64,000 bases of DNA from Euglena gracilis (GCA_039621445.1 CP154954.1:30384395-30448394), one strand, 5' to 3'. Positions 8,970 through 38,047 are shown, counted from the stretch's first letter. The notes: generated by a model not told the origin, from the sequence alone. Numbers and translations are program-made.

Positions 8970-9048
8970 GTGGGAGAGGAGCCAGGTTGATGACAGCAGC
9001 CGTTTGATTCATTGCCAAGAAAGCCGCCCCGGGATCTGGAGGTGAAGT

Positions 9049-9099
9049 TGGGCCTGGATTTGGCTCGACATCTCCATCCTCACAAAGGTCACGTGTCCA
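9049..9099 (-). other. 2A/StopGo motif WTRDLCEDGDVEPNPG|P
   Basis: Matches D(V/I)ExNPGP; mirror of 22468-22518. Confidence 0.85.
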
Positions 9100-10486: not shown

Positions 10487-10977
10487 GTGGAAGAAAAACC
10501 CCATTGCATCAAAATCAACCAACCCAGGTCAAAATCAAGGTTTCCCCGTTTGATTTTGATAAATTATGCTGAATTCCATCATTATTGAGTTTTGCAAACC
10601 CCTGCAAACTCAAGCGCCAATCTCAGAAAAAACTGTTCCAAGCGCTTGCAAGCGCTCACCAAATACAACATTTTCCCTTAAAACCAAAGGAAAAATGCAG
10701 AAAAAGCTTAAAAACATGCTAAATAGACCCAAAATCACCCTTTGGGAATACCGAGCATCACTCAATCTCTCTCTCCTTGCACACCCAAACCATGGGCGCC
10801 CTAGGAGAGGGAATTTTAATGGAAATCTTTAGAAAGCCTTAAAATTAGAGCTAAACCGCCCTTAAAACGGCCTTCTAAAAAGAAAAATCTCCGCCGCCCG
10901 GCCTCTGATACGAAAACTGTGTCCAGAACGCCGGTTCGGGCGTGAAGCCGTGTTCCAGAACGCCGGTTCGGGCAGCC

Positions 10978-12490: not shown

Positions 12491-12789
12491 AAGCCGTGTT
12501 CCAGAACGCGCGGGCGTGAAGCCGTGTTCCAGAACGCCGGTTCGGGCAGCCCGAACCGGCGTTCTGGAACACGGCTTCACGCCCGAACCGGCGTTCTGGA
12601 CACAGTTGTTGAAACCGTGGATTAGGGGCTCTGGCTTCACGCCCGAACCGGCGTTCAAGGAATAACGGCCATTTTCGCCCTAAATACCCAGTTTCTGAAC
12701 ATTTTTGGGCATTTTTGGGATCCTTTGGGCTCATGGCCATGTCGATCGGCCGATTGAAGTTTTCATCCGTCTGATGCCAGGTTACCCAT

Positions 12790-13290
12790 CAATCGAAAGG
12801 TTTTTTTTCAGAATTACAATTTGGAAAAAAATTTTGGTTGGACCACCCCTAGGTTTTTTCAGATACACGGTTGGGAAATTTTGGCTGGACCCCCCCCCAG
12901 ATTTTTTCAGATTTGCAATGCCGAATTTTCGGTTGGACCCCGCTGGTTTTTTTTTTTCCAGAATTATGGTTGGGATTTGATCCCCCCTTTTTTCAGAATT
13001 CCGGTTCAGAGATTTTGGCTGGGTTTCTTCATAAACACGGTTGAAAAAAAAATTGGCTGGAGCCCCCCCAGGGTTTTTCAGAAGTATGGGTGGGAAATTT
13101 TGGCTGGACCCCCCTTGGAATTTTTCAAAATTGTTGGGAAATGTTAATTACAGTTGGGAAATTTTGGCCCCCCTGGGTGTTTTCAAAATTGGTTGGACCC
13201 TCCCCTGGGTTTTTCAGAATTATGGTTAGGAAATTTTAGCTGGACCCCTTGGGTTTTTTCAGAATTACGATTTTTGGACCCTTTTCGCAA
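12790..13290. repeat. Degenerate ~40-bp tandem repeats (TTTTTCAGAATTACGGTTGGGAAATTTTGGCTGGACCCCCC)
   Basis: About a dozen diverged units; mirror at ~19850-20340. Confidence 0.75.
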
Positions 13291-13563
13291 TTTCCAAAAT
13301 CCACTGTTCACCTGCCATGTTGCCCCTTGATCGATAACCCTTCTCAAGGGTTTTAGATGGCCTTAGATTTCAGCCCTGCTGCATGGTATTCTATTTCAGA
13401 AAATCCCCAGATTTGGCCAAATGGAAATTGTTGCACAAAATACCCCAATTTCTGGCCAAATACCCCCCCAAAAAGTGCTCAGATATGATTGCCTCATGTC
13501 TACAAACCATTTTGGACACTTTTTGGCACTTTTCATTTTCGGTCCCCAGGACGCCGTTTTCCC

Positions 13564-13641
13564 GCCCGAACCGGCGTTCTGGACACCGGTTCGGCGCAGA
13601 AATTTCTGCGCCGAACCGGCGTCCAGAACGCCGGTTCGGGC
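13564..13641. repeat. 78-bp near-perfect palindrome centred on GAAATTTC
   Basis: GCCCGAACCGGCGTTCTGGAC...GTCCAGAACGCCGGTTCGGGC with one mismatch. Same building block as the palindromes at ~12511-12610 and 20530-20651. Confidence 0.9.
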
Positions 13642-14532
13642 ATGAAGCCAGAGCCCCAATACACGGTTTCAAACGGTCGTCAAGTGGCATCCCCCCAAGC
13701 CAAAAAACGCGCAAAAGGTTAGCCGCGTTTCGCGGTTACCTATTAGCCGTTTCGGCTTAGCTGAGGTGTGAAAATGCACACTGTGGGAAAAGGGCCTTGG
13801 CAGGTTTCCTGACAAAGTGTCCCATACACCCACTTTGGGTGTGCCAAAGGCACGCGGGGTTGGTCAAGCGTATTCGCTGAAAACCCGAGGGGAGAGGGGT
13901 GGAAGGGGGGGGGCAGGCTCCTATCCTGGTCATACCCGGATAGGGCTCCTAGGCGGTCATATCCGCACTAGGAAACAAAAGCCTACTTACAAAACCGACT
14001 GCCGGCGACAGCTTTGGGGGAAAGGAGGGAGGAGAGGGGGGGCTGGATTAGGCCAGAACAGAATTTTTGCTGTCTGGCAGCCTTAAGGGGCCTTAGGGCC
14101 GAAAAGTGACAACTTGGCCTATTATTACGGCGTGCGCGCTGTGTGCTGTGTGTCACTTAGCGGCTTGCCAGGTTTCCCGGCTGCCAAGGCCTTCACAGCA
14201 GTAGCTCCTTCACGACGTGATAAGAGGCGCTTACCTCATGCAGACGGATTCCGTCCGTACGGCCATTGGTATAGGGGGCGGCGGGTGGGGAGGGCTCTTG
14301 GATGTTTCCATCCAGAGCGCAGAGTGTGTGACACAGACCCAGGTTCATCCCAGGGCTGTTTAGCGATTTCCGCTACCAGTGTATTGTGTATGAGTCTCCT
14401 GTGCTGTCCAGGCTCCATGAAGGCGCTTACCTTACATGGGCCTGGTAATGCCGTTTCGGCATTACATCCTTTCCAAACGCCAATAATCATATGGCCTTCT
14501 AAAAAGAAAAATCTCCGCCGCCCGGCGGTCGA

Positions 14533-17500
14533 CCGGGGCCCAACACCAATCGGGACTCCGCCAAAAAGACACGCCAGAGTCGGGAGTCACAAGCCCCCAC
14601 ACCTTCTATACCCCACACAGGTCTGTCTCAGGAAATGGCGTTGGTCTCCCTGTCCCCCGCACCATCCTCCCCAGCAGCAACGACGCTGCAACCCGGCCTG
14701 CCGTCCGACCTTGGTCCGGGGTTTTCCTTTGCTTCCCATGACACCTGCCCCTTTGCAGATTGCCCACGCTCGCGGACAACCATGACCCGCTCTCAGGTCC
14801 TATATCGTGTCTCTCAACACGTCGCCGCCGGACGATCACCCACCCCCGAATTTTTGCGAGCTACTGCGACCACGACTTGCGCCGTCTGTCGGACCTTGCT
14901 ACGGGCAAGAGAACGTTGCCAATGCCCCCACCAGGGTGCCTCGGCCGTCCACGCTTCTTCACACCCCTCCGTCCCACTCCCCTCTTCACCGCACCAACCC
15001 CTCGGGAATGGCACTCCTCTGTCTCTCCCGTGCCCAGATATGCAGCCCGATCTGCAGGTGGTTCTCTCCACCAACTGCCCCACTCTTCGCCGTCTCCCAC
15101 TGCCAAGTCGTCACGCCATTTGTGACGCCCTTGCATCCTCCATTCAGACCTTTCTCCAGGCCCAAACCTGGGAAGCTCTACACCGCCTGTTCATTTTTCC
15201 GAAACTCGTTCTTGGTGCCCCTCCCAAAACCTCGTCTTCCCATCAACACACATTGCATTGCCTCCTGGAAAAGAGACTGGCACAGTGGCACGCAGGAGAG
15301 TTTGCCGCTCTGTTTGATCCGCTTCGCTCTGACAGACGGCGAAAGCGGCCCACCACCCGCGCCAACCCCTCTGGCTCTACTTCTGACTCTGTGGCACGTG
15401 GTCTTATGGACCGGGTGCGCGGACTCGTTGAAGAAGGGGCCCTCGGCAAGGCCGTGGACGCTCTCACCTCTTTGCCCCTGGCATCGCCCGGGGATCCAGC
15501 AGTGATGCAGAAGCTCCTTTCGCTCCATCCACATGGGTCTCCATTACGAGCCAGTTTGCCGCTGCCTGGGGCAGGCAATTCTCCACAAACTACTGACTTC
15601 AACTGGTCTTCAATTGTGCAAGAAGTTGCAGCCTCTTTCCCCCGTGGCAGCGCCCCCGGCCAATCTGGTCTCCGTCCACAACACCTTCGGGACTTGTTGG
15701 ACCGTGAGGCCGGGACAGGCCCGCTACACACAGCCTTGGGGTCCCTGGCTCAGAAGGCCTGGGAGGGCTCTTTGCCAGCAAAAGCCTCGATCATTTTTGG
15801 TACGTCAAACCTGATCCCACTTACCAAAAAGGATGGCGGTCTACGGCCGATCGCCGTGGGGGATTGCCTGCGGCGCTTCATTGGGAAAATGCTGTTGCGA
15901 CACACGCAGTGCAAAGCGGAAACGTCTCAGCTGTTCCCGCAGCAATTGGGAGTGGGGGTGCGCTACGGTGCGGAGACAGTCGGGTTGGCGGTACAGGCCG
16001 CACTGGCGTCTCTGCCAGTGGATGGCGATTGGGTCGTTTTCCAGGCCGACGTTTCCAACGCCTTCAACACCATTGATCGATCCGCGTTCCTGCAGGCATC
16101 CCTGGACCTCTGCCCGTCCCTTTACAACTGGCTCCGATTCTCCTACGGAGAAGACGTCCCACTTCTTTGCCAGGGTGACGTGCTGTGTCACAGCAGGACC
16201 GGTGTCCATCAAGGGGACACATGTGGGCCCATTGCCTTTGCCTTGGGTCTCCATCAGGCCCTGCAACAGGCTTCGGCCAATTTGCCCAACACGGTGTGGC
16301 AGGCATGGTACTTGGACGACGGTACTGTCATCGGCCCTGCCGTTGATGTTCTGCCTTTCACGGCTTCTCTGGCCACGGCACTTGGCAGCGTTGGGCTCCA
16401 CCTCAACCCCTCCAAGTGTGCCTTATGGGGACCAGGTGTACCCTGTGCCACTCCGAAACCCCCGGCTCTTCAGATCCTGCCTCCCGACCACCTTGCACAA
16501 AACTTCCCGGTCACCCCATGGGGACCGGGCAGTGGCATCCTGTGCCTAGGGGTACCTTGCGACTATCCTGGTGACTGCACCTTTTCTGACACCACGTGGG
16601 CCAAGGCATCCGAAAAATTTCAAGCTACCATCTCGCGCCTCCAACAACTGCCGGATCCCCAACTCCAACATTGTTTGCTGCGCAACTGTCTGGATGGCTG
16701 CCGCGTCACGCACCTTCTGCGTCAGACAAACATTTCCTCCGGGACGCACAGTGTGCAAGTGATCTCCGACTCCATCCGGAGTGCTGCCTGTGACATTGTG
16801 GGGGCACCCCTGTCTACCTTGCATTGGAAACAAATCACCTTGCCGTGCAATAAGACAGGGTGGGGCATCACAGACCCCCAGTTGGAAAGACCAGCTGCCC
16901 GTTTGGCTGCTTGCGTGGGTTTTTCCCAACGAGCGCCCGGCTTCAATATCCCTCCGCCCTGGCGCATGCTCCCGCTACCAGATACCATCCCCGTCGCCAA
17001 ACTGGCTCGTGACACCTTGGGCCCGCACAGCGAACCATTGGCTTCCTGGATCGCCAACCCTTCTTCCTTGGCCTGTTCCACCCCAGATCACTCCACTCAA
17101 TCGTGGTGGGCCGAACGTTTCCACGCCGTTCGCGTGGCAACTTTGGAGGACGGTGCACCTCTTCGGGACATTGCCAGGCTTCGTTGCCAGTCCTCTGCCT
17201 TCCTTCAAAATTGGATGACCGTCTTACCATCCAGGTCGGTGAATACCGTCCTAGCTCCGGACGAATACAGACTGCTTCTACGCTTCTGGACTGGCTTACC
17301 CCTGATCCCAACAACGGACATGCTTCTGTGCCCCCTGTGTGCTGAGGCAGTCGATCCATTTGGCGATCACCTCCTGGCTTGCAGAAGGAATGGCATAACA
17401 GAAAGGCACAACTGTGTTCGTGACGCCATTTTTGACCTGTGCCAACGCGCAGGCATCACTCTTCGCAAAGAACAGGGATGCGAGGGTGGCACCCGTGACG

Positions 17501-18114
17501 CTGATCTCCTCCTCCTGGGGTGGAACAAAGGGAAGCATCTCGCTGTTTGATGTCACCATTGAACACCCGCTGGCCCCATCACGGTGGCCTCTGAACTTGA
17601 CCCGAGTTCAGCGTACTCTACCAGACGCTGAAATGCACAAGAGAACACAAGCTGAAGAACGGTGCGCCCGCCACCAGTGGGAGTACATTGGGGCTGCATT
17701 TAACCCCTGGGGGTGCACATGACCGGCAGCCTCCAAACTCCTACGCGATGTCCTACGCCTCGCGACCAATTCATATTCTGGAACAGCCAAACAACGAAAA
17801 TTTCAGGAATTGACCGAAAACTTGGCCATCACACTGGCCCGTGCAGTTGCACGGCAGCTGCGGTTGGCCGAAAGAGCCACAGATCGTATGATCCTGAACT
17901 CGTAAGGTGAAAATGCTCCCCGTTGCACCAGCCTTCCGGAGCCACAAAGCCGGAGAACACCGCGCATGCACACTTCACACCTCTCCACCCATCACTCTCT
18001 GCTTGGGCTTTGCCCTTGCTCTCACCGCTCGACCCACACTCCTTCGTTGTATATAGCCTCGCACCCTCGAACACTCAAAATCCAGTAGGCTGTGCCACTG
18101 GTCGGTGGATTCGG
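14533..18114 (+). mobile_element. CRE-like non-LTR retrotransposon family 2, near-complete, in IR1 spacer
   Basis: 971-aa ORF 14635-17550: N-terminal Cys/His cluster, RPIAVG, DVSNAFN, QGDTCGP, YLDD, CPLC..DHLLAC, RHN, RDADLL. Frameshifts at ~17548 (DVTIEHP) and ~17720. Family-B tail at 18087-18114. Confidence 0.92.
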
Positions 18115-20529
18115 GGGGGGGGGCAGTTGCCCAAGGCTTTCCCCGCGGGCACCTCTCGCCGAGGGGTGGGGGGCAATCTTCTCCCCAAGGCCTTCCCCTC
18201 GGGGGGGGGGGTGATTTTCATCTATCACCGAAAGGATTTTTGGTGATAATGGACCCTCCATTCCCTTCACGGTTGGGAATACCGTGGGGGGGGGGGTGGG
18301 GCTGGTTTTTATCCACTCAAAAAAAAGATTTTTTTGAGTGGTGTTGGACCCCCATTTCCTTTCACGGTGGTGAGAACCGTGGGGGGGGGGGAGGTGGGCT
18401 CGGTGTGGTTGGAATAGAATATATGGCCTAATAGATTCCTCCACACCGTTCCGCCACTTATGCACGATCTCGAACAATGTCATCGCAATTGCGTTGCAAA
18501 AATTCAAAGTGTTTTTCATTCCCATACCAAGGAAAGCGAGAAGGAGGGGGGGGTGAAACCCCCGACTTTCGTCGCAAGGGGGGGAGTGACAACCGTTTGA
18601 GGTCGACCGCCGGGCGGCGGAGATTTTTCTTTTTAGAAGGCCATATGATTATTGGCGGTTGGAAAGGATGTAATGCCGAAACGGCATTACCAGGCCCATG
18701 TAAGGTAAGCGCCTTCATGGAGCCTGGACAGCACAGGAGACTCATACACAATACACTGGTAGCGGAAATCGCTAAACAGCCCTGGGATGAACCTGGGTCT
18801 GTGTCACACACTCTGCGCTCTGGATGGAAACATCCAAGAGCCCTCCCCACCCGCCACCCCCTATACCAATGGCCGTGCGGACGGAATCCGTCTGCATGAG
18901 GTAAGCGCCTCTTATCACGTCGTGAAGGAGCTACTGCTGTGAAGGCCTTGGCAGCCGGGAAACCTGGCAAGCCGCTAAGTGACACACAGCACACAGCGCG
19001 CACGCCGTAATAATAGGCCAAGTTGTCACTTTTCGGCCCTAAGGCCCCTTAAGGCTGCCAGACAGCAAAAATTCTGTTCTGGCCTAATCCAGCCCCCCCT
19101 CTCCTCCCTCCTTTCCCCCAAAGCTGTCGCCGGCAGTCGGTTTTGTAAGTAGGCTTTTGTTTCCTAGTGCGGATATGACCGCCTAGGAGCCCTATCCGGG
19201 TATGACCAGGATAGGAGCCTGCCCCCCCCCCTTCCACCCCTCTCCCCTCGGGTTTTCAGCGAATACGCTTGACCAACCCCGCGTGCCTTTGGCACACCCA
19301 AAGTGGGTGTATGGGACACTTTGTCAGGAAACCTGCCAAGGCCCTTTTCCCACAGTGTGCATTTTCACACCTCACCTAAGCCGAAACGGCTAATAGGTAA
19401 CCGCGAAACGCGGCTAACCTTTTGCGCGTTTTTTGGCTTGGGTGGATGCCACTTGACGACCGTTTGAAACCGTGTATTGGGGCTCTGGCTTCATGCCCGA
19501 ACCGGCGTTCTGGACGCCGGTTCGGCGCAGAAATTTCTGCGCCGAACCGGTGTCCAGAACGCCGGTTCGGGCGGGAAAACGGCGTCCTGGGGACCGAAAA
19601 TGAAAAGTGCCAAAAAGTGTCCAAAATGGTTTGTAGACATGAGGCAATCATATCTGAGCACTTTTTGGGGGGGTATTTGGCCAGAAATTGGGGTATTTTG
19701 TGCAACAATTTCCATTTGGCCAAATCTGGGGATTTTCTGAAATAGAATACCATGCAGCAGGGCTGAAATCTAAGGCCATCTAAAACCCTTGAGAAGGGTT
19801 ATCGATCAAGGGGCAACATGGCAGGTGAACAGTGGATTTTGGAAATTGCGAAAAGGGTCCAAAAATCGTAATTCTGAAAAAACCCAAGGGGTCCAGCTAA
19901 AATTTCCTAACCATAATTCTGAAAAACCCAGGGGAGGGTCCAACCAATTTTGAAAACACCCAGGGGGGCCAAAATTTCCCAACTGTAATTAACATTTCCC
20001 AACAATTTTGAAAAATTCCAAGGGGGGGTCCAGCCAAAATTTCCCAACCATACTTCTGAAAAACCCTGGGGGGGCTCCAGCCAATTTTTTTTTCAACCGT
20101 GTTTGTGAAGAAACCCAGCCAAAATCTCTGAACCGGAATTCTGAAAAAAGGGGGGATCAAATCCCAACCATAATTCTGGAAAAAAAAAACCAGCGGGGTC
20201 CAACCGAAAATTCGGCATTGCAAATCTGAAAAAATCTGGGGGGGGGTCCAGCCAAAATTTCCCAACCGTGATTCTGAAAAAACCTAGGGGTGGTCCAACC
20301 AAAAATTTTTTCCAAATTGTAATTCTGAAAAAAAAACCTTTCGATTGATGGGTAACCTGGCATCAGACGGATGAAAACTTCAATCGGCCGATCGACATGG
20401 CCATGAGCCCAAAGGATCCCAAAAATGCCCAAAAATGTTCAGAAACTGGGTATTTAGGGCGAAATTGGCCTTTATTCCTAAAACGCCGGTTCGGGCGTGA
20501 AGCCAGAGCCCCTAATCCACGGTTTCAAC

Positions 20530-20651
20530 AACTGTGTCCAGAACGCCGGTTCGGGCGTGAAGCCGTGTTCCAGAACGCCGGTTCGGGCGGCCGCCCGAAC
20601 CGGCGTTCTGGAACACGGCTTCACGCCCGAACCGGCGTTCTGGACACAGTT
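20530..20651. repeat. Perfect 122-bp palindrome (empty site of the AT-rich island)
   Basis: 61-bp arms with no loop, centred on GCGG|CCGC at 20590/20591. Confidence 0.92.
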
Positions 20652-22467
20652 TTCGTATCAGAGGCCGGGCGGCGAAGATTTTTCTTTTTAGAAGGCCGTT
20701 TTAAGGGCGGTTTAGCTCTAATTTTAAGGCTTTCTAAAGATTTCCATTAAAATTCCCTCTCCTAGGGCGCCCATGGTTTGGGTGTGCAAGGAGAGAGAGA
20801 TTGAGTGATGCTCGGTATTCCCAAAGGGTGATTTTGGGTCTATTTAGCATGTTTTTAAGCTTTTTCTGCATTTTTCCTTTGGTTTTAAGGGAAAATGTTG
20901 TATTTGGTGAGCGCTTGCAAGCGCTTGGAACAGTTTTTTCTGAGATTGGCGCTTGAGTTTGCAGGGGTTTGCAAAACTCAATAATGATGGAATTCAGCAT
21001 AATTTATCAAAATCAAACGGGGAAACCTTGATTTTGACCTGGGTTGGTTGATTTTGATGCAATGGGGTTTTTCTTCCACCCACGGTGGGTAGCACAGCTT
21101 CACCCGAACCGTGCCCCGGGCCCAGGGAAACGTCTCTTTTGGCCCTCGCCACAATGGGCAAGCATTTGGGTTTTGAGGAGGTTGTCTCCATTTCACTTTC
21201 TCGCCTGTGGAGCTACACTCCGCCAGGGGGCATTAGCCCTAGGGTTCGAGGCACTCGAAGTCCTCCATCCCTTGCCACATCTCCTGATGCTTGGCGATGG
21301 CGTGCTTGATAGGGGTTGCTTGTCCTTGGTGTCACTGCTCGGCCGAAGCCGCAATGGTTTAATCGTGACACGTCGGGTAGGCAACCGCCGGTGAACCGAT
21401 GGTTCACCGGCCCTTACCCATCAGGCACGCCAGGGTCGAGCCTCTGGTTGCTGATTTCCACCACGGCGCCATCGGAACTTCCCGCCGTACGGCGGCCATT
21501 CCTTACCCCGCCTGGCAGCGCCGTATGCCATGGCTGGTTCAAGTCCCGTGCACTCCCGGCTCGGAGTTTAGCTCATCGGGACTCGAACCCGCGCGTCCAG
21601 AAGATGGTACCGATCGAAGCCGGCCCTCTGTCCGCTGGACTAACGCAGGAGATTTGAGGGCGCTTAGGAATCAGCGCACTCAATCCTAAATTTAACTGCC
21701 CATCAAGGGAGAATTCGTAGAAATTGAGCATTTCCTAATCCGCGCTGCCTCAACCAACCCTCATGCCCTGAATAGTTTATGCCTTGAATTGTTTGTTTTG
21801 CTTGACATCATCTGAGTTTTCTATTGAATTCAAACTACAGATCTCTGACCTACCGCCTCCAGTCCACTCCGTCAATTCCGCCCCTACCCCTACCTCACCT
21901 ACCCCCTTCCCCCTTCGCCCCTACCCCAACTTCCAAGGCCAGGGGGACGCCCCTGTGCCTCCCATGTGTCAAGAGGCGCCCCATCCCGCCCGCCGCCCAG
22001 GGCCCCCTGAGGGGGACGCCCCCATTCCGAGATGCGCCCAACCTGTGAGCAGCAAAGGCAATGACCTGGGGGTGATGCCGCCAAGGCCGCCGCCCCCAGC
22101 GAGCCTGGGCGAGTCTCCCTGCTCCTCCCCCCGGAGGGCGGCCCCATCCCTCCAACGCCCCCGCAGCACCAGCAGGCTGGCCCACACGTCAGCGGCGTTT
22201 GCGCTGGGCTATGATCCGCGGGAGACGCCACCAAGGATCTCTCCCTCGGTGAGCCCGGGCGGGCCTGTCCCTCCCCTTGGTGCTGCCGCAGTCTCCACTG
22301 CCGGCCTATCCTCCACCCCTTTCCCAAGATGCGCCCAACCTGTGAGGACGAGCTGCCAACCCGCCCCATCGGCTGCTCCCCTTTCCAGCCCCGTCCCAAC
22401 GTTCCATCCTCACATCCACAGCTGCAGCTTCGTGTGTCAATTGTCACCATTTTACTACCAAGGGTCT

Positions 22468-22518
22468 TGGACACGTGACCTTTGTGAGGATGGAGATGTC
22501 GAGCCAAATCCAGGCCCA
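22468..22518 (+). other. 2A/StopGo motif WTRDLCEDGDVEPNPG|P
   Basis: Canonical consensus, in frame with the downstream ZnF-RT. Confidence 0.88.
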
Positions 22519-22597
22519 ACTTCACCTCCAGATCCCGGGGCGGCTTTCTTGGCAATGAATCAAACGGCTGCTGTCATCAACCTGGCTCCTCTCCCAC

Positions 22598-23022
22598 CAT
22601 AGCTGGCACTTCGTTTAAAACGAAGTCAAAAAAAAACACGTTTTTTTATATAAAAAAAACATGTTTTTTTAAAAAAAAACAAAAAAACGCCATTGAGGGT
22701 CCAGGGCAAAAAAAATTTTTTGCCTTTAATTTTAGCTTTTTTGCCCATCCTCGGTCAGAGAAAGACACCAAATTTGGGATGTTTCAAGTTGAAACATCCC
22801 AAAATGGCAGAAAAATGCCCTATTTTGACCATTCTTGTTGAAGACAACCAAAAGTATTGGTTTTCAAGTCATTTGAGCTAAGATTGGTTCACCCTTGCGA
22901 TCAAAGGCAAAATTTGGACCATCATTTTCCCCTTTGTTTTTTTTGCCGTTTTTTTTGCCCGTTTTTTTTAATAAAAAAAAAACGTTTTTTTTAAAAAAAA
23001 ACTAAAAAAAACGCCAGCTATG
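22598..23022. mobile_element. hAT-like MITE (mirror of 8547-8969)
   Basis: TIR CATAGCTGGC/GCCAGCTATG; TSD TCTCCCAC at 22590-22597 and 23023-23030. Confidence 0.85.
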
Positions 23023-24071
23023 TCTCCCACCGTCCGCCGCCTCCTCCGCCTCTGCACCGGCAAGACCAAATCCTCAAGCACGCAAGCGGAGGGCCGAGCG
23101 TGGTCCAGATTCCTCTGATTCTGAAGAAGAGGGCCCAGGCGTTTTCCATTGCCCGTTTCCCCACTGTTGCAAGTCCTTCCGACATGGCTTTCAAGGCTGG
23201 AATACAAAGCGGCTCGCCACAAATCATGTGGCCATGGTTCACGTTGCTGCTGGTGAAATTCCATCATCCGTGTGGCTCCAAGAAGCGCAACGCTGGGTTT
23301 GTGGCCATTGCCTAAGAATGCTGCCGGAGCGGAAAAGGTGTGTGGGGGAGAACTGCGTTCGTGTCAGAGCAGACTCCACCCCAAGCCGCTTGCCACCACC
23401 GAGCCATCCTCCTGCAGTCCAGGCGGCCTCATCATCATCACGTAACCCCGCACCACCATGTTCCTCCTTGGACTTACCAAATGCAGCCATGGCTACGGCG
23501 GTTCACGATATCCTGTCCCTCACCAGGCCTCTGTTTCGGCACATCCCGCGTGCAGCCATACCCTTGTGGGGCATGGCATGGGCCAAGGTGCAACAGCGTC
23601 TCTGCTCCGAGCGCTCATGGGAGGCATTGCGAGATTGGGCCCTCTTTCAAAAAATCACACTTTGGTCCCCACGGGGTGGCAAAGCACACATGGGACAAGC
23701 TGCCCAGCTCATCCGCTCACGAGTCGAGCGTTTCAATGCAGGAGACCTTGCAGCCCTGTGGGACGAATATCGCCAGGGCATCCCGCCGCCGGACCGCAAG
23801 AAAAGAAAGAGCACATCACCACTCTCCCTCCATGAAAAGGTGGACAGACTACAAGAAAGCCCATTCCTCAACACACTCCGTGGCTTGATGGATGATGGCG
23901 CATTCGGTAAAGCGGTGCGCCATCTCATGTCGGATGGACTACACGACCCGCTGGACCTCAACGTGCAAACCAAGCTGCGGGATCTGCACCCAAGAAGGCC
24001 AGAAGTCATGTGCACCGAACCCATTGCAAAGGCATTCCCCTTCCCAAAGGAGGACAGCAGCCAGGATCAAC

Positions 24072-25564
24072 GAAGACGGTGGTGGGGCGAACCGAATCCA
24101 CCGACCAGTGGCACAGCCTTCTGAATTTGTCAGAGTTCGTGGGAGGGGAGCTATGTACAGATGGGCGAGGCCCATGGGCAGCATAGGTATAAGCGGTGGC
24201 GGAAGAGGGGAGAGGAGAACGGTCGAGGGTGAGGGGGACTGCGTGTGCTCGAGGTGGTCGGGCGGGTGCCCGGCTGCCGGGTTGGTGAGGTGCTCCGAGG
24301 GCGCCCCAGTTTGTGCTGGCGCTCTCTCGGTGGCGCTCCTTCTGTGGCGGGTGCGTGCGGTTGGGTGGCCTTGTGGGCCACCATTCGGCGTCTGTGGTGT
24401 TTGTGTTCCCTGGCTGTTGTTGTTGTAGTTGTTGTTGTTTGTTTAACGGAGCAGGTGCTTGGGCTGCAGGAGGTGGAAGACCTCTCGTAGCAGGGCGATG
24501 GCCACGTTCTGATAAATCTCTGCCTCCTTGATTTCTCGTTCGGCGCCCTGTTGCCAGGACGAGGCGCGTTTGGCCACTCGGCCTAGCGTCTTGGCTGTTT
24601 CGGGGCCCATGCCACCCCATGTCCCCAGGGCGAACGGCGTGAAGCTCCACCCTGCTTGCTGGCAGGGGATGGTGTACTTCTGCTTCTTGGCCTCCTCCCT
24701 TCTCTTTAGGAAGGACCTCCAGCGCTCGCGGGTGGCATTCTGTTCTGTGGTCTGCCATCCGTGGCAGACGGTGACGTCCAGTGCCGTTGGCTTTCCCTCA
24801 GACCAGCAGTCAAGTAGGAGGTCCGCCGGGCGGAGGTGACTGTCGCGGGCCGTCGGCAGGGAAACTTCCTTCTGTACCCGCTGTCCGATGTTGGACAAGG
24901 TTTGAAATAGCGCGTCCTGTACAGCGTTGTGGCGGGTTGCGAAGTTGTTCCTCCGGCAGCAGAGGAGGTGGTCGCCCTCCTTGTCCAGGGGTTGGCCGCA
25001 GCCTGTGCACGGCTGGCTGATGTCCGTCAGCACCGGGAGGCCCAACCACCATTTTAGACCCGGGGTATAGTCTTCGCTGGAGAAGGTGGTATGAGAGTTG
25101 TTCGAGGGGCAGGCCGCCATCCAGCCGTGTCCGAAACCCGTGGCCTGTTCCAGCAGGCGGTTCTGGTCCCGGGGCCGAGCCTGGTCCACTAGGTCGTCCA
25201 TTGCCTTCTTGCCCAGCTCGTGATTCCACCACTTCTGCTTCCGCGGCTCCTGGTCCGCGGACGCGATTCGCTGTGGGTTGTTAAGGAAGGTGGTCACGGT
25301 GGCATGGTTGGCACCCAGCCTGCCCCTGAGGTCGTCCAAAACGGGTGTGACCAAGGTAAGCTGCGGGCTGACTGCGTAGTCCGGCACTCCCACCCGCCGG
25401 GCCCCGTCTGAGTAGAAATCTGCGAGGCAGGAAATCCTTGCCGCGGGTTGGGTGTATGACGGTATGCGAAGGCCGCAGCCGCCACTTGACAGGGGCAGCG
25501 AGGCCTGTGTCCGCTGTTGCGAGTTTAGCGCCGTGCCCAGTATCCCAGTATCAGTATCAGTGCC
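24072..25564 (-). mobile_element. 5'-truncated CRE-like element (family 3) inserted antisense into family 1
   Basis: 14-bp TSD CAGCCAGGATCAAC at 24058-24071 and 25565-25578. ORF 24443-25393 has CTGC..DHLLCC, RHN and RPADLL..LDVT..K. Family-B tail at 24076-24119. Empty site near 7517. Confidence 0.92.
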
Positions 25565-28500
25565 CAGCCAGGATCAACACGATTTGAACAAGTTTCTACG
25601 CGAGACGCTACTGTCCTTTCCAAAGGCTTCTGCACCAGGTCCGGATGGCTTGAGACCACAACACCTCCAAGACGTGGTGCGTGTGGATGCAGGGGCATCT
25701 TCATTCGTGGTTGCTGCTCTATGCATGTTCACGAAAGCGGCACTGGATGGGTCCTTGCCTGCACGAGCAATGCCGTTCATCTCTTCGGCTACCTTGATTC
25801 CTTTGAGGAAGGAGGGCCCCACTGGCAGCTTGAATGTCCGACCCATCGCCGTGGGAAACACCGTCCGCCGCTTTGTGGGGAAGTTTGCCATGATGTCACC
25901 GTGTGTGAGGCAGCGAGCAGCAGAACTACACCCGCAACAATGTGGAGTGGCCACAGAAGGAGCGTGTGAAACCATAGCACAGGGCCTGCAATCTTTCGTA
26001 CAACATGCACAAGGTGATGCATGGGGCATCCTGCAGGTGGACTTGCAAAATGCCTTCAATGCAATCGATCGGCAAGCAATGCTTCATGCTGTACGCAAAC
26101 GCGCACCTGAGCTCGAAGGATGGGCACGACTTTCTTACGCGTCACACTCCGCCCTCTACACCTACGGACATCGTATGACAAGCGAACAGGGTGTGCAACA
26201 AGGCGACCCCCTTGGCCCGCTCTTCTTTGCTCTGGCTTGGCAAGATGTGGTCCAAGCTCTCCCAAAAGACCTCGCCTTGAACGTGTGGTACCTGGATGAT
26301 GGACACCTTGTCGGGTCGATGGATGCCTTGGCTGCTTCACTTGCCACAATCAGCCAAAGTTCCGTGCACCTGGGGGTGCAATTGAACCTCCAAAAATGTC
26401 GCCTGTGGGGCCCTGCGCAACACCCAACTCCGCACGGAAACCATTTCGACATGCTGCGATCAATACCCCGTGTGCCATGGGCACCTGATCACGGATTGCG
26501 GGTCCTTGGCTTTCCGGTTGAACACCCCTCTTCGGCAACGTTTTGCAAGCGCGAGATGCAAGCCATGGTGGACAAGCTAGAGGAAGCGTGCCACGTCGTC
26601 AGCAACCTCAGAGACCCGCAATTTGAGCACATTTTGCTGCGATATTGTCTTGATGCCTGCAAAGTGATGCATTTTCTGCGGACGTTGCACACGCACGCCC
26701 TCCAAGGACCACTCCAAGAGGTAGCACGAGTGATCCGGAGAACATGGGATGACATTCTGGGGCAGCCTGCCGCCAATGATGCACAGTGGACGCAATGCTC
26801 CCTCCCGCTCCGGATGGCGGGGCTGGGAATCAAGGACCCCCTTGTCCTCCAAGCACCAGCCAGAATGGCGGGTATCTTATGTGCCCAACACCGCTCACAA
26901 CTGCTGCGGTTTCCGCCAGAGGCATGTGCTTTGCCTTCCGACTTCACGATGGTGGCCACAAAGTTGCAGGACACGCTAGGCCCGCAGTTCGCGCCACTGC
27001 AAGAATGGACTCAGCGAAACTTGCCCATCAATTGTGAAGACGATCATCGAAGGCAGCAGTGGTGGACGGAAAAGGTGCATCAAGCCCGGAAAGATTCCTT
27101 GAAGAACACGCTTCCTCAAAGAGACAAGTGCCGCTTGCGCCTGCAGTCAATGCCCCACACAACCGCATGGTTGCGAACGGTCCCGAACAAGGGCATTGGA
27201 ACAAAAATACCCGCATCAAAGTACCGTTTGCTCATCCGATGGTGGCTTGGTGCCAAGATCTTGCCGGGCTCGTCCGGCGCCGCATGCCCCTTGTGTGGTG
27301 ACTCCCTGGATCCCTTTGGGGACCATCTGCTATGTTGCAAGAAAAACAAGCTTGTACAGCGCCACAACGCTGTGCGAGATGCGCTGGCGATGGTCCTGAA
27401 GGAGAATGGCGTGCACACAAGGACAGAAGTCACAGTCGGGGGAAAGATGCGCCCAGCAGACATTGCGCTCCAGGGAGTGGATCCCTCAGGACCACTGGCG
27501 GTCGACCTTGTCGTGTTCCACCCTCTCAGAAAAGATCTGTCCTGGGACGAAAGCGCAGCCCTCAAGAACATGGCAGCGATGGAGAGCAAGAAGATCGCAA
27601 AGAATCAGCCTGTGTGTGAATCGGCTGGTTGGTTGTTCAGCCCACTCTCCTTTCACCCATGGTCAGGCTTGGGCCCACTCGGCTCCGGGCTCCTCAGCCG
27701 CTTGGTAAAGCAGGTGTTGGGTGACCAACAAGGGTGGGCAAGGCAACACCGGGCGGCAGACATATGGCAACGAATATCGTCAGCTTTGATGGCTTTCGTG
27801 GCGGAGCAGCTATCTGCAGCCACAGCGGCAAGAGGACATGATGAGCTGCCACTGACAACCACATCGCAGGAGGTGCAACCGGCTCCAAACAAAGCACAAG
27901 GTGTGACCGCAGTGGCGGCTGTGGACATGGAAGGATGGCAAAGAGTGCTCCAATCGGAAGAAGGGACCTTGGTCGGCCCCATCCGCATCCAATGCATGCG
28001 CCCGAGGTGAGACACCCGGCAAAAAGGAGATGGTAGCACCATCCCCCCCCCAAAAAAAAACCGCAGGGCCCACGCCCCTCTGGGCAAGGCCAACGAGAAT
28101 CGAAGTGAAACATGACAAGTGACAGGCGGGTGCAACGGCTCGCGGTGACCCGTCCCGACGGCCAAGAACAGCACGCCGACACGGGCGACGCGCTCGCACG
28201 GGCGACGCGCGGGCACGACACGCGCGAGACACGTGCGAGCCGTGCCGAGCCGTGCCGAGCTGTGCCGAGCCGTGCCGAGCCGTGCCGAGCCGTGCCGAGC
28301 CGTGCCTAAAAAAAAAACCCATCAAGGGCATCAAAATCATTTTCCTCTCACAGGGTTTTCCTCTTTTTACTCCTTGGAATTGTCAATTGGTGCAATCACA
28401 AACAATTATCATTGTGAATTCAAGTGTTGGAATTACATTTGCAAATGGAAAGTCCAATTGAGAACAATCAATCATTTGAAGAAGGTGAGGTTTGTCTTCC

Positions 28501-28979
28501 CCCCACCTCATCTGTGGGAAAAGGGGCAGGGGGGTGGGACTCCTCAACTCAGGCAACCACTGGCCAAATTTCACACCAAAACCCCCTTTTGGCCCAGAAA
28601 CTGTGAGAAATGACACCCAGGGGGGGCTGTTGGCTCTCACTGGTTCAGCTGAGCAGGGAGGGGTTGAAACCCCAAAGGCACCCCCCTTGGAGATCCCAGT
28701 GACACCCCCCTCAGGGGTCGGGGAGGGTCCACTGGGAAGTTTCTCCTTGGGGGGCGGCTGGCCGTCCGTCCGTTCGAGCCGTCCGGACCTCTTCAGCCGG
28801 ACCAATGCTGGACGCCCAGCCGTCCGTCCGGACGAAGCATTTTTTCGCCAGCCGTCCGTCAAGCCGGACCAATGTCTGTCTTTCCAGCCGGCCGGACCAA
28901 AAAAAAAAAATTCCTTCCTTCCGAAAAGCAGTCACGGCTTCCCTTTACTCGTCGCGTCAAATAAGGAAAAACAGGAAGT

Positions 28980-29051
28980 TGCCCCCGGCGGGATTCGAAC
29001 CCGCGACCTACCGGACGCACGCTAACCACACGACCGCTATACCACGGGGGC
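28980..29051 (-). pseudogene. Mirror copy of tRNA-like element
   Basis: Reverse complement of 2450-2521. Confidence 0.7.
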
Positions 29052-30516
29052 GATATCATTCTCATCCGTGTACTTTTATCAAAATTATTTTTGCCGCCTC
29101 AGAGAAAACAAGAAGTTGGAAAAATCATCTTGAGGTTGAATGATAAATACCACAGAAATAGGCCAGTGCATCACCTCTGATACGAACCTTGCAGTACGGG
29201 GCAGCTCAGCGGACATGGTACTGTAGATCTGACATGTTGTGAAGGAACCCTGGACCGTTACTTCCGGTTGGAGATCTACGCGATCTTTCTATCTTTCTTG
29301 CGCTTCGCCTGCGCTTCCAAAGACCCGGCCGGCTAGCCGGCCCGCCGGCCAGCCGGCCAGCCGGCCAGCCGGCTAGCTGGACCAAGTGCATTTTCTTCAG
29401 CCGTCCGGACCAAGCCCACAAGGTCAGCCGTCCGTCCGGACCTTCGCTTTTTTCACCATCCGTCCGTCCGTCCGTCCGTCCGCCCCCTTGGAAATGATGG
29501 CCCAGCTTCGGCCACAGGGGGGTGCAGAATGGGAAAAAATTTCCGACACAAGTCGGCTCGAGGAGCCAAAAAACGATCCTACGCCGGAAACTCGCCCGGG
29601 GCGGGGGTTTCTGCTTCACCCCAGTACTGCCGGGGGACATGGTAGCACGGGTGTGAAACACACTGTGCGGAAAGGAGAGACACCGAATGGAGTAGTAGTG
29701 AACCCCACCGGGGAAGCGTCAGATATCCTGACTTGACCTGGGAATCCCTGGTCCTTGAAGGAAATCGGGCGTAGCCCTGGGAGGGGGATGTGTACCAGGC
29801 ACGTCCCAGCTCTGTAGGATATCTGCAGAGTGGGTTCTGTGACGGTCGCACCACTGTGGAAACCACAGTTGGTAAGATCGTGGCAGACCCTTCTGGGATC
29901 TGCCCCTGGACACGTCAGCACTTTTCTCTACTCCCCCACAGGTGGTATTCTTTACTGTTAAGCTTCCAAAGTTTCACCATTGGTTTTGTCAGAGGGAAAA
30001 TCCCTCAGAACAATTGAACTTGACTCCAGAAGAAACTTCTGAAGTCTTTGTATTGTGCTTTGCCTCTTGGGGAATTGGGGACAAAAGGGGAAAACCACTT
30101 TTTGTTACTCCAAAGACTTTTCCCTACCATAAGTAGGCTGCACACCAAGGCGAAAGCGAAAGGCTTTTTCAGAAAGTCCCAAAAAGGGGAAAAGGGAAAG
30201 CTTTGGACGTTCACTGAAGCCCAGTCTGGGTTGAAGGCGGGGCCCCACAGGGTGCACTTCTCGGCATTCAAGGCAACACCAACGAGAGGTCCTTCCTCCA
30301 ACACGAGGTGTACTACCGCTTCGAGTTGTCGCGGGTTCCCCACGACGTGGGCGTCATCCAAATACCATGCCTGCCAACCGCACACTGCATGGATTTCCTC
30401 CACAAGGAAGACCCCCCCTGAATGACCCCCCTTTGGTCCCGGCTAGGACCCCGAAGGGTCACTCAGGGGAGGGTCGTTTAGGGGGGTCGAGAAAAAGGGT
30501 CTCGGATACCCCCCTA

Positions 30517-31043
30517 AACCCCCCCCCCCAAATATAAGAAACCCGTTTCTTATATTTGGGTGTCGGCCGATCGGCCCAAAGGGTTTCTTATATTTGGGGG
30601 TTTCTTATATTTGGGTGTCGAAGGCCGGCCCCAAGGGTTTCTTATAAATGGAACTTTTTCTTCCTTCGGATCATTCATATAATTAATTACATGTGACCGC
30701 CGTCCATAGGATTCTTCATGTCTGACTGCCATTGGAGCAGTGGGGAAGAGGGTCGTGGCATGGACAGGTGCCTCCAAAAAGCAGTTGCTGCTGAACTCTT
30801 GCTTTGCAGAGAAGCAATAGATTGGACTGGCTTCATCTTTGTGTTGACCGCGCCTTGAGATTTGCTGTGGCCCATGGTAAAAATGAGGGGTTTCTTATAT
30901 TTGGATTGGCGTCCAACAGCCCAGGGGTTTCTTATATTTGGGGGTTTCTTATATTTGGGTGTCGGCTGAAAATCAGCCAAAGGGTTTCTTATATTTGGGG
31001 GTTTCTTATAGCGAGGGGTTTCTTATATTTGGGGGGGGGGGTT
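30517..31043. mobile_element. Tc1/mariner/pogo-type MITE (TA TSD)
   Basis: TIR AACCCCCCCCCCCAAATATAAGAAACC, internal TTTCTTATATTTGGG repeats and flanking TA. Empty sites near 1585 and 50267. Confidence 0.8.
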
Positions 31044-31687
31044 TACCCCTTTTCGGATTTTTTTGTGAAATTTATGTTCTCTGGCATCATTTCCACCAAA
31101 AGGAAACCACGCTTTTCTGAAAATCTCAAAAAATCAGAGGTTTTTGTATCTTCAAAAAAATTTATTATCTGGACCCGGACCGTGGAGGGTCATTTCATCA
31201 ATCAGGCCGTGGTCTCCTCATTGAAGGCATCCACGTTAAGTTAAGGATTGCTTGCCGTACCACCGATTCCGGCACTGCATAGGAATCGTGGCGCCACCTC
31301 GCTTTGCCACGTTTTGAAGCCCCCCCCCCCCACCTACAGGGCTTGATGATACCACATCTTGGTACTTTGACAGGAGTCGGGCAGCCAAAACGACAGGTGA
31401 AAGACTCCTCCATCAGGGGGGACTGGGCCCTACCCCCCCCCAAGGGGGCTAGGCCCTCCCCCGAGACCTCCAGCTGTAAATTCCCAGGTGAAGGCATCAC
31501 CACTGGGACACCTCCCAAACCTGTCACATAATCAACCAAACGGGGGGGGGGGCAGTCGATAAGCCAACTCATGCTTCACACAACCCCTGTGCCTCCCTTG
31601 CGTGTTCCTGTGCTGTCACATTTCATCCTTTCACTGCAAATGATGGAGGTGGATTAAGCGTCTGAGAAGTGGTGTAATGTTGGGTTC

Positions 31688-34600
31688 TTTTTTGAACAAA
31701 ACATTCACTACGGGTAGCACAGCTTCACCCAGACCGTGCCCCGGGCCCAGGGAGACGTCTCTTTTGGCCCTCGCCACAAGGAGAAACTCCTCGTGACTCC
31801 CTGTGCGGCCACAGGTCGCCGGTAGATACTATGGGTGTAAAGTACAGAAAGTACAAAGGCATGTCCCGCGGTCAGTGGTTAGAGGAAAATGGGAAAGTCC
31901 CATCTTCAATATATACGGCGGGGAGAGCGGGGGGTGTGTGCTTTGCTTGCCACTGTTGGCGTGTTTGTGTCATTTGCTGATTTTTCTTGGTGTTTTTGTT
32001 TTCAGAGCCGTCCGAGTGTGGTAGGTAAGAAAGATGGCCCCGTGGCCATTGTTCTGTGTGGGCCACCGAAGGTGGTAGAGGTGATAGAGGTGGCAGGTGC
32101 ACTGGATGAAGTCACAGTCAGAAATACGGGGAATGCGTACCAGCGCTACTGCAGTCAAGCAGTTGCTCAGGACACTGTCCCCATGCCAGTTGTCGTGCCA
32201 ACTCGCGCATCAAAGCCATTCCAAGCCCCTGCCATGCACTGGCCTCCACACCCCGCCTCTCCCAGCCGTTATGTTGGCTTGTTTGGAGGCGGATGCATGT
32301 GGAGACGAATCCTTGGCTTGCTTCACTCATGCCACCGTAACAGTCCATCACCAGTGGGATAAATGTCCAACCTCGTCGCTTGCAAGGCTCCCCATATTTG
32401 GCGATTTTGTCTCCTGTCGATTGTGCCAATTGTCCACCTGAGCTGGAGGTGACCTGGAGGGTGCAAGTGGGTGCCTCACTGTGACATCAATGGCTACGGG
32501 ACCATTTGCGTCGAATCGAGTGATAAAAACATCACCCGGTCGTGTTCCATCCTCGGCTTTTTCTTCTCGACGTGCAGGGAAGCCAGCTCGTTGTGCCAGA
32601 TTCAAGACAAAGCTTTGCACTGCCCCGTGCCGCCGAACGAGGTTGTTACCGTGGCAGCAGACGAGGTGGTGGCCGGCTGTGTCAAGTGGGCTCATGCATC
32701 GAGGACATCCAGGAGAGTTGCTTTCTTCTGTTTTTACCACAGGAGCGCCAAGCGTCCATTGGAGGAGGGCAACAACTTCTTTTGTGGGAACAAGGGTTTT
32801 TGTGCCAGCACAGGGGACTGCACACGTCCAGGCCATGGCATGAGGCCTTGTTTGGCAGGAAAATTGAATGGCATCGGATCCGGACAGGGACTTTTCCAGT
32901 TTCTTTTGGCGCAGAATTGAGCAGACGTTTCCCCAGTGTTTCTGTGACACCATCTCTCGTGGTAGTTGGGTGGCACGGGTGCAGTCATCAGTTAAGGCCT
33001 GCAGGGGCTGACCTTCAACCACAACGATTTTGAGCAATGTCAGTGCGGAGTCAAAATCCGGTGGTTTCATATTGCGGATTACAAAGTCTGGCAGCCCCAG
33101 CATCGTTTCAGCCCTTTGGAGAAAGTCCAGTTGGGCTGACCATCGTGCAGCGAGTCGGCATTCCTGCGGATCCTTAATTCCTAGTCCCCCCTGTGACCAC
33201 TGGTTGTCATCAACGATGCAACTCAGTGTGTTTCGTAAACAGTGGCTCAGCAACAAGCATTGGTCCCAAGCTAGAGGCAGTGGAGTTCCCCTCAATAAGT
33301 CATTGACGCGACACGCATCCAAACACTGTCGCAAAAGGGTGTACTGGACATGGGCACTTGGCACAAGCTGTAGGATATTGCATGCCTTCAGAACCATTTC
33401 AACTTGTGGAGCCCAGACAGTGGAGGCGAACCCCCCCCCCCTGCTGGGTGGCAGACTGGCAGTCCAAGGTCCTTGAGGCCACTTGCTTCAGAATATGCCT
33501 GCACTGGGATTTGTTGGAGCGGGGTTGTGTTGGTTGGGAGGCTGGACCATTCCATTCCAAAGGCAGGTCCCCACAACCGACACTTGTACATATTCAGGGA
33601 AACCCCAATGAGGGGTCCTTCGGAGATCAGGCGGTGAACTTTGGGGTTTTCGGGCGGGACCCCCCCACCCCCCCTCTTCATTGGAAATTCATGGACGAAC
33701 TTCACCGGTGAACTTCACCGGTGAACTTCACCAGTGAAGTTTCTCCATGAAATTCCTTTAGGGCTGCAATTGGACTTTGCAAATGCCTTCAACTGCCTGC
33801 GCCGTGAAGGTATGTTGGACGCTGTTCGAGAACGCTGCCCTGAGATGACAGCATGGATGGAGAGCTGCTACAGTGAGCATTCCACTTTGTACTATGGTTC
33901 AACCTCCTTCCGCAGCAAAAGTGGCGTGCAACAAGGTGACCCATGTGGTCCTGCGGCGTTCGCAATTGCAATTCAAAATCTGGTTGAAAAAGTGGGTGAG
34001 CTGGTCGGATGGCAAGCATGGTACTTGGACGATGCCCATCTCGTGGGCACCCTAGAACAACTGGAAACAGCAGTCCAATACATTCTGCGTGAAGGAGGTT
34101 AGGCAGGGGTGGGGGTGGGGGGGGTTGGGGGCTCCGCCCAACAAGCTGCTGAAGCCCAATGGCGACAATGGAACAAGGATCAGAATGGCCAACGCCAAAC
34201 TGTCCAGGTAGATTGTTGTGAACTGCTGTTCTCACCACTTCCTGTCTCATGATCATTTTTCCCACCAGACGACGCAGGCACTCGCCCGCTGCTATGGGCC
34301 TGGTTCCCTCTTCTTCTGGAGTAGGTGGGCATTGGTTGCCAAAATCATCGGTGTTTTTTTGCTGCCTTCACTTTCCGCAAGGCTGTCAGTCTGGCTGCTG
34401 CCATGATTGCTGCAGGTCCTTTTGGCAGCCCATTGTCAATGGTGCGGTAACAGAAGGTCGTGAGTTCGTCCAAAAGGTCATCTGCATGGCAACCTGCATC
34501 ATGACCCAGCAAACACCGAAGGTGGTCGGGCCTCAAGCCAGAGGGGCCTGGGGAGGATTCTGGGCCAAAGCTGAAGACTGCCTTTCGCACTATGGTCCGG

Positions 34601-35340: not shown

Positions 35341-35401
35341 TTGCGAAGTGGTTTCTAAAAGTGGGAGCACTTGCACAGGTCACCACTGTCGCTTGGGGCG
35401 C

Positions 35402-35449
35402 GGAGAAGGAATTTTATCCTGTGGTGACATTCAGCCCAACCCAGGCCCC
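35402..35449 (+). other. 2A-like motif GEGILSCGDIQPNPG|P (E->Q variant)
   Basis: LSCGDIxxNPGP next to the 5' end of the family A element, but on the opposite strand. Confidence 0.7.
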
Positions 35450-38034: not shown

Positions 38035-38047
38035 AAAGAAACTCAGA

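Follow-up and report, generated by a model that had tools for sequence, protein, structure and literature searches.

Probable StopGo-type 2A peptides between a variable leader and the reverse transcriptase protein in a clade of R2-like, REL-type retrotransposons with a member in Euglena gracilis

What is a viral-type 2A ribosome-skipping motif doing in front of the reverse transcriptase (RT) of a retrotransposon that carries a restriction-like endonuclease (REL)? The question is raised by a 64,000-nt stretch of the Euglena gracilis genome (GCA_039621445.1, CP154954.1:30384395-30448394), the whole of which is referred to here as the window. Among non-LTR retrotransposons, 2A has been described for elements of the APE type (Odon et al. 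2013, PMC3708506; review PMC3894237), and in the accessible portions of both papers REL-type elements figure as the "ancient" single-ORF kind, with no 2A reported in them. Two 2026 preprints, as far as their main texts go, place 2A-like peptides in Dualen/RandI and other ORF2p-like proteins (PMC13405545) and in RT-bearing, unspecified non-LTR-like contigs (10.64898/2026.09.24.754024), that is, in more kinds of retroelement than the 2013 set, Dualen having a REL plus an APE domain. These main texts name no purely REL-type host, no euglenid and no 2A flanking a Dam domain, and the supplements may list such cases. More generally, the accessible parts of the literature do not mention 2A for any euglenid or for elements that are purely REL-type, although the supplementary tables of PMC12338488, PMC13405545 and 10.64898/2026.09.24.754024 may hold such entries; no account of euglenid CRE-like elements was found, and two Euglena genome papers are silent on REL-type LINEs. 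The original prediction for this locus, that 2A is not known as a general feature of REL or CRE elements, is in keeping with these portions of the literature, which tie 2A to APE-type elements plus Dualen/RandI (PMC3708506, PMC3894237, PMC13405545).

A six-frame scan of the window returned WTRDLCEDGDVEPNPGP, hereafter motif 1, on the plus strand, and a second copy of its DNA, identical, at 9049-9099 on the minus strand in the other arm of a palindrome, where a mirror copy had been predicted. The 2A-like motifs of the plus strand are as follows.

22468-22518, plus strand: motif 1, 2A-like peptide WTRDLCEDGDVEPNPG followed by the P of the skipping site, 13/17 residues identical to the same position in the relative P0003
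Between 22515 and 22516, plus strand: predicted StopGo point of motif 1, where the Gly codon closes at 22515 and the Pro codon occupies 22516-22518
35411-35449, plus strand: motif 2, ILSCGDIQPNPGP, of the GRG...CGD type with Q replacing E
43276-43320, plus strand: motif 3, GGLLLCGEVEENPGP, an orphan 2A-like fragment

For motifs 2 and 3 the predicted peptides are present, whereas the starts given for them (35402 and 43267) lie 9 nt upstream of those peptides. The core of motif 1, DVEPNPGP, conforms to D(V/I)ExNPG/P, with the slash marking the skipping point; motif 2 (DIQPNPGP) and motif 3 (EVEENPGP) are each one residue off D(V/I)ExNPGP, and their deviation at residues deemed important in the literature speaks against a genuine-2A reading. 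Against 300 simulated windows, drawn from a first-order Markov model with the window's own dinucleotide transitions, the window holds 2 matches to D[VI]E.NPGP and 4 to G[DE][VI][EQ].NPGP, vs 0/300 for either pattern; since motif 1 owes its second copy to an inverted duplication, one copy lying in each arm, these represent three independent motifs, not four. The bare tetrapeptide NPGP, with 10 occurrences in the six frames of the window vs a simulated mean of 3.4, lends something to the idea that the matches reflect chance or a Pro/Gly-rich composition, an explanation whose probability is nevertheless negligible, given that the extended motif arose in none of the 300 simulations and that independent relatives have it at the corresponding place. 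The 2A motifs of the window are real, not chance.

Motif 1 lies within a retrotransposon, here called element 1, which comprises, or is bordered by, the following features.

21710-28317, plus strand: element 1, a full-length REL-type non-LTR retrotransposon with an 11-bp target-site duplication, an A10 tail and the size of its relatives
21699-21709, plus strand: 5' target-site duplication CCCATCAAGGG, an 11-mer that recurs at 28318
21772-22467, plus strand: leader frame, 232 codons, 21% Pro, first in-frame ATG at 21964
22531-22551, plus strand: post-2A box DPGAAFL (D-x-G-A-x-F-L), consensus of alignment A2 and first conserved block of the mature protein
22598-23022, plus strand: MITE-like insertion of 425 nt that breaks the ORF, present in both palindrome arms
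23150-23242, plus strand: N-terminal C2H2-type zinc finger, CPFPHC...H....H, with Cys/His columns conserved in A2
24058-25564, minus strand: nested insertion of ~1.5 kb, which stems from a different REL-type lineage, is truncated at its 5' end and has CCHC and RPAD and a 14-nt duplication
25836-26438, plus strand: reverse transcriptase domain, Pfam RVT_1, E 3.9e-12
26289-26303, plus strand: YLDDG motif of the RT
27285-27338, plus strand: CCHC zinc knuckle CPLCGDSLDPFGDHLLCC, with C574, C577, H587 and C591 invariant in A2
27450-27515, plus strand: restriction-like endonuclease core, RPAD...VD, over which the fold match to R2 proteins extends
28008-28010, plus strand: stop of the ORF
28011-28317, plus strand: 3' UTR ending in (CCGTGCCGAG)n and then A10
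28318-28328, plus strand: 3' target-site duplication CCCATCAAGGG
~3184-9856, minus strand: mirror copy of element 1 in the other palindrome arm

Element 1 bears the hallmarks of a non-LTR retrotransposon, namely an RVT_1 domain, an A10 tail, an 11-bp duplication and empty-site reads. DNA reads and contigs that reach 21709 run on into sequence from beyond 28328, so an empty site exists elsewhere, and this, together with the duplication and the A10 tail, fixes the borders at 21710-28317. As found, the element measures 6608 nt, or ~4668 nt minus two later insertions, and its nearest relatives are contigs of 4.4-4.9 kb, similar to its ~4.7 kb. The leader is indeed Pro-rich, as had been claimed (49/232 residues), and counts 184 codons from the ATG at 21964; it matched no Pfam family and showed no similarity to the leaders of relatives. 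An in-frame TGA (21769-21771) precedes the leader frame 60 nt inside element 1, so the leader is encoded by the element and does not stem from host read-through.

Motif 1 had been described as lying in frame between the Pro-rich leader and a ZnF-RT-CCHC-REL protein. The position holds; the uninterrupted frame does not, since the parts are in frame only after in-silico excisions. As the DNA stands, the leader ORF ends at a TAG (22600-22602), 27 codons past the 2A site, and the zinc-finger ORF (23006-24124) is in a different frame. With both insertions removed in silico, 21772-28007 is open for 1432 codons with no stop, and the protein following NPG/P then has the predicted length of ~1184 aa.

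The first of the two insertions has 10-nt terminal inverted repeats (CATAGCTGGC and GCCAGCTATG) and is flanked by the two copies of an 8-bp duplication, TCTCCCAC (22590-22597, 23023-23030); its mirror copy occupies 8545-8969, a third copy lies at ~40820-41232 in unrelated flanks, and the word depth of its DNA is ~100x that of element 1. The inverted ends, the duplication, the third copy, the depth and the presence in both arms identify it as a high-copy MITE that landed before the palindrome formed. Its excision together with one copy of the 8-bp duplication joins the leader-2A frame exactly to the zinc-finger frame, colinear with P0003. An intron was also considered for the 425-nt insert and is not supported, in view of the inverted ends, the 8-bp duplication and the third copy in unrelated flanks. 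A/T-rich ends similar to those of the MITE are also seen near 35940-36600.

The second insertion, the nested copy, is found in this arm only, and a DNA contig with the joint 24057->25565 represents the form without it; its lineage was therefore active after the palindrome had formed. This palindrome is imperfect (1-14534 vs 18601-32636, 98-100% identity), and since its arms differ by several later insertions it is not a simple assembly mirror. The other arm alone carries a 1.5-kb insertion at 4457-5971, which splits the RT-REL ORF of the mirror copy; its inverted ends, 81% alike, measure ~210 nt each, and tandem repeats lie inside it. The centre of the palindrome is taken up by another REL-type element (14626-17884, with a frameshift near 17500), and a second large, imperfect palindrome is present at 38047-40783 vs 44253-49615, both palindromes having 96-100% identity.

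With the MITE (TAG at 22600) plus a further insertion in each arm, the window copy is unable to express the fusion; it is a recent insertion but dead. Raw RNA reads from two runs under the same species label, of each of which ~5 in 100 were sampled, gave zero depth in the element-specific bins 21711-22658, 23133-23843, 25029-25739 and 25977-28100, and only a few reads on the repeats surrounding element 1. The target of the insertion was a dispersed high-copy repeat with a tRNA-like piece. That piece (21576-21632, minus strand) is a weak Rfam match within the high-copy, transcribed repeat hosting element 1 and may mark a tRNA-derived SINE. Separately, a tRNA-Ala(UGC) gene lies at 28980-29051 on the minus strand, ~650 nt past the 3' end of element 1, and is mirrored at 2450-2521 on the plus strand.

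As to class, the prediction that the host of motif 1 is a REL-endonuclease non-LTR retrotransposon was confirmed by Pfam, by conserved columns and by sequence and fold matches to R2. RVT_1 was the sole Pfam match in element 1, with no APE family, and in the alignments a C2H2 finger at the N-terminus and the RT motifs can be made out, while the CCHC and RPAD...D...K columns are invariant or nearly so. All PDB sequence matches (3/3) were R2 proteins. An AlphaFold model of the RT-REL part (pLDDT 89.6, pTM 0.86) retrieved R2 proteins as the best seven Foldseek matches, with E values from 3.5e-21 to 5.5e-18 over ~830 columns and the whole length, followed by L1 ORF2p at ranks 8-14. With CPLCG...GDH...C and RPAD...VD columns present and no N-terminal APE domain, element 1 is a REL-type non-LTR retrotransposon with an R2-like build. 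A protein-cluster look-up matched only unnamed RVT_1 clusters.

Element 1 shares with R2 the order of domains (N-terminal zinc finger, RT, CCHC, REL) and its best sequence and fold matches (8gh6, 9nl3, 9dou, 8ibw and others), yet the sequence identity of its protein to R2 is only ~16%, and whereas R2 targets 28S rDNA, element 1 sits in a dispersed repeat behind an 11-bp duplication. Rfam at gathering scores found neither rRNA nor ribozyme in the window, and a search of 21500-22500 for a 5'-end ribozyme gave none at E up to 1. We know of no 2A in R2.

The comparison with the CRE clade of trypanosomatids, to which element 1 had been likened, is likewise divided, and membership in it is putative. 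In layout element 1 resembles CRE elements, with a single ORF, a zinc-finger-like motif, an RT, an RLE and poly-A; the traits that PMC12278014, in its accessible part, gives for that clade (single ORF, RT, REL motif, one or two zinc-finger-like motifs, poly-A, duplications, a euglenozoan host) are shared, and no 2A is mentioned for it there. The same part of that paper assigns CRE elements (CRE1, CRE2, SLACS, CZAR) to one fixed position in spliced-leader (SL) RNA genes. Unlike these, element 1 lies in a dispersed repeat and the nested copy inside element 1, and the SL sequence of the window is intact: an exact 24-nt spliced-leader match at 37777-37800 (minus strand) is uninterrupted by any element. 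This 24-nt sequence is printed within an E. gracilis SL primer in PMC5654406, and the match marks the window as Euglena DNA; it may belong to a gene for SL RNA or else to an mRNA that was retro-copied, as its 5' end.

The other two motifs had been placed beside other CRE lineages; neither stands upstream of an intact RT ORF. Motif 2 and the conserved box that follows it, DPARAVGFL (35486-35512), run along the plus strand and face this feature head to head:

32187-35295, minus strand: element 3, which is REL-type but degenerate and comes from another lineage (tblastn)

Two parts of element 3 run in the direction opposite to its remainder, namely an internal piece of the RT (33740-34093, plus strand) and the 5' end with the 2A (35291-35461). 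Motif 3, at the centre of the second palindrome, has no post-2A box and no RT downstream; its only neighbour is a 62-aa match to a REL C-terminus on the opposite strand (42745-42930, E 6.5e-4). Both motifs look like 5'-end debris of other copies.

Is the 2A of element 1 then a one-off, or a trait of its kind? A motif was found in 10/120 RT homologues, in every case on the N-terminal side of the zinc finger; the other rows are mostly truncated at the N-terminus, with starts downstream of the 2A position. In the element's own clade, among the ten members with enough N-terminus, eight have an intact motif, one a decayed motif (P0006) and one none (P0014). A longer member (P0270) of the 90% cluster of the truncated P0001 has the motif. 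An earlier homologue search with the N-terminal part of P0003, reliant on shared words, had given three matches only; a HMMER search with the N-terminal domain gave 268, and the best 150 include 29 that reach 30 aa or more upstream. Of the 29, 16 carry one to three motifs; a wider pattern adds one in P0182. The conservation of the motif among relatives, on which the original prediction had staked itself, is thus borne out. The decayed form in P0006 reads DGAFPPNHGP, against DGDIESNPGP at that position in its sister P0005, so the motif has been lost naturally inside the clade.

The distribution is also patchy. No motif was seen in P0014 or in 13/29 assessable N-terminal relatives among the best 150 of 268, most motif-less rows being predicted proteins that begin at the first Met, so that the true frequency is uncertain both ways. 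Among 80 more distant metagenome loci, all at most 35% identical, 78 have no motif and two do: L008 (32% identical) has FLAGDVEVNPGP at the start of a single 1168-aa ORF and is the sole locus with the motif in the RT ORF, and L035 has it in a separate downstream ORF. These absences indicate that 2A is dispensable and patchy outside one clade. In FastTree trees of the RT-REL part, 8/9 rows flagged for the motif fell in one 41-row clade (support 99), and in a second tree 15/15 flagged rows fell in a 53-row clade (support 99), under a flagging rule that missed the motif-bearing P0056, P0289 and P0265. In the tree with the 41-row clade P0056 lies outside the 2A clade, in the other half of the tree, which implies more than one gain or a wider ancestry of 2A.

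The contrast along the protein is sharp. Identity between element 1 and P0003 is 38/232 (16%) in the leader, 13/17 (76%) in the 2A, 27/64 (42%) from there to the finger and 64-65% beyond, and in this alignment conservation sets in abruptly at the 2A. Leaders range from ~5 to 230 aa and are mutually unalignable; for the leader of element 1 the best match to another leader of the set had E 0.065, and none was significant. The conserved D-x-G-A-x-F-L box follows 5-25 residues after the motif in relatives. The 35 proteins and three window motifs gave 46 distinct 20-mers, of which 43 keep the N before PGP, and two upstream patterns recur: W.R[DN]L..DGD[VI]E.NPGP, the pattern of motif 1, and GRG..L.CGD[VI]E.NPGP, that of motifs 2 and 3. 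The protein P0266 has the two together. The core DGD[VI]E.NPGP or CGD[VI]E.NPGP is retained across lineages whose RTs are only ~35% identical. Such comparisons support 2A as a conserved trait of the clade, not a one-off.

Among the best 150 of the 268 N-terminal-domain relatives, eight have two or three motifs. Pfam places Dam, an N6-adenine methyltransferase domain, in the leaders of six relatives (P0154, P0203, P0253, P0265, P0227, P0211), and four of these matches exceed the curated cut-off; in REL-type relatives one to three 2A motifs mark Dam off from the RT protein, and in P0203 (sites 435/593) and P0253 (482/703) it lies between two 2A sites. P0227 and P0265 hold Dam, 2A, RT, CCHC and RPAD in one chain. 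The 64-kb window itself contains no Dam module, only its 2A stretches matching. In the accessible part of one preprint (10.64898/2026.05.21.726589), DIRS and LTR elements are the carriers of DAM, and chimerism is considered possible for the LINE-like cases; the preprint also notes DAM elements of Euglena gracilis with RTs branching among LINE-like RTs, which the relatives of element 1 with Pfam Dam in the RT ORF resemble. They differ in having Dam, 2A, ZnF, RT, CCHC and REL in one protein (P0227, P0265); element 1 itself is without Dam.

We consider it probable that the motifs are genuine StopGo-type 2A peptides in a single-ORF, R2-like clade, and that they release the RT protein from its leader. 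Translation of an intact element would begin somewhere in this variable, non-conserved leader; at D(V/I)ExNPG/P the ribosome would release the leader without forming the Gly-Pro bond and then continue, so that the ZnF-RT-REL protein would always start with Pro, the D-x-G-A-x-F-L box following 5-25 residues on. In some relatives the same joints may be used two or three times, stringing modules such as a Dam-like methyltransferase before the RT protein, and in the Dam-bearing relatives 2A would thus act as a polyprotein joint. Both the skipping activity and its purpose are what we infer from sequence. That 2A defines the N-terminus of the RT protein, as had been proposed, is consistent with the abrupt onset of conservation; the addition that it does so whatever the upstream start is not supported, given the in-frame TGA at 21769-21771 in this copy. 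A broader reading, that the whole REL-type (R2/CRE-like) clade is built as StopGo polyproteins, with one to three joints of two interchangeable classes that shed the leader and add accessories, is tentative, and we would put it at somewhat short of even.

The main rival, compatible with a leader-release role, is that 2A is active and chiefly throttles: part of the ribosomes would stop at the site, keeping the RT protein scarce, and a defined N-terminus or the separation of partners would be secondary. Such a role was proposed for ORF1-less APE-type elements in the accessible part of PMC3894237, most retrotransposon-borne 2A-like peptides tested in PMC13405545 lowered protein abundance according to its main text, and element 1 likewise has no ORF1 and a non-conserved leader; the 2A sites flanking Dam are left unexplained, however, in an arrangement that looks like product separation, and we regard throttling as the chief role as rather unlikely. 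Another rival holds that in element 1 the leader is itself functional, ORF1-like or accessory, and 2A the joint between two working proteins. Relatives have joints between the RT protein and modules that are Cys-rich or resemble a Dam methyltransferase; this use and the 184 codons from ATG 21964 fit such a reading, which is nonetheless improbable for a Pro-rich, repetitive leader that matches no Pfam family, shares 16% of its residues with its counterpart in the closest full-length relative and has no leader match better than E 0.065, the more so as the leaders of the close relatives P0204 and P0270 are only ~5-45 aa long.

It is less probable still that the motifs are inert relics, ancestral or captured from an RNA virus. 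Decay (P0006) or loss (P0014) of the motif in otherwise intact proteins and the variant forms of motifs 2 and 3 within scrambled DNA are what relics would produce, but the core is kept where RTs are ~35% identical and the adjoining leader is unalignable, and the N before PGP survives in nearly all of the 20-mers. Release of the RT protein from its leader by StopGo is our preferred reading.

How do the motifs compare with those of viruses? In the accessible part of Rao et al. 2025 (PMC12338488), class A is GDVE.NPGP after a Leu-rich stretch, and class B has an invariant Trp ~16 residues upstream and a Pro before N/H. Like class A, 22/46 20-mers are of the GRG..L.CGD[VI]E.NPGP form (20 from relatives, plus motifs 2 and 3), a count that includes motif 3 although the rule of the script binned it with the Trp group for an unrelated Trp. 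Like class B, motif 1 and 11 20-mers of relatives have a Trp at -17 and often a Pro right before the N. Unlike the viral peptides, motif 1 keeps the class-A core DGDVE, not EEGIE, and so fits neither class cleanly, and its carrier is no RNA virus but a retrotransposon.

In setting, the comparison is with the APE-type elements L1Tc/ingi of Trypanosoma and Rex1, L2, CR1 and Crack of animals, for which the accessible descriptions place D(V/I)ExNPGP near the start of a single long ORF with no ORF1; L1Tc and ingi also share euglenozoan hosts with element 1. All of these differ in having an N-terminal APE, where element 1 has a C-terminal REL behind the CCHC and an R2 fold.

Euglena mRNAs are made by spliced-leader trans-splicing. 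If true, the broader polyprotein reading would be the first case of StopGo polyproteins outside APE-type elements, with no second ORF or protease needed, and would tie the use of 2A to hosts like Euglena, in which an element's own promoter does not determine where the mRNA begins or which start codon is used. The Dam-2A-RT relatives suggest that LINE-like elements, not DIRS and LTR elements alone, carry adenine methyltransferases, and 2A joints would account for the expression of the Dam module from a single ORF. For APE-type elements, the accessible parts of PMC3708506 and PMC3894237 advance the idea of 2A as a brake that takes over from ORF1 in restraining ORF2. REL-type elements never had an ORF1, yet 2A is conserved in this clade of them, which shows that its link to the loss of ORF1 is not general, and the findings point to a second use, that of cutting a variable leader or accessory modules off the RT protein. 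The clade also offers dozens of natural 2A variants, in two sequence classes and one homologous context, as a comparative set for the residues that are key to 2A.
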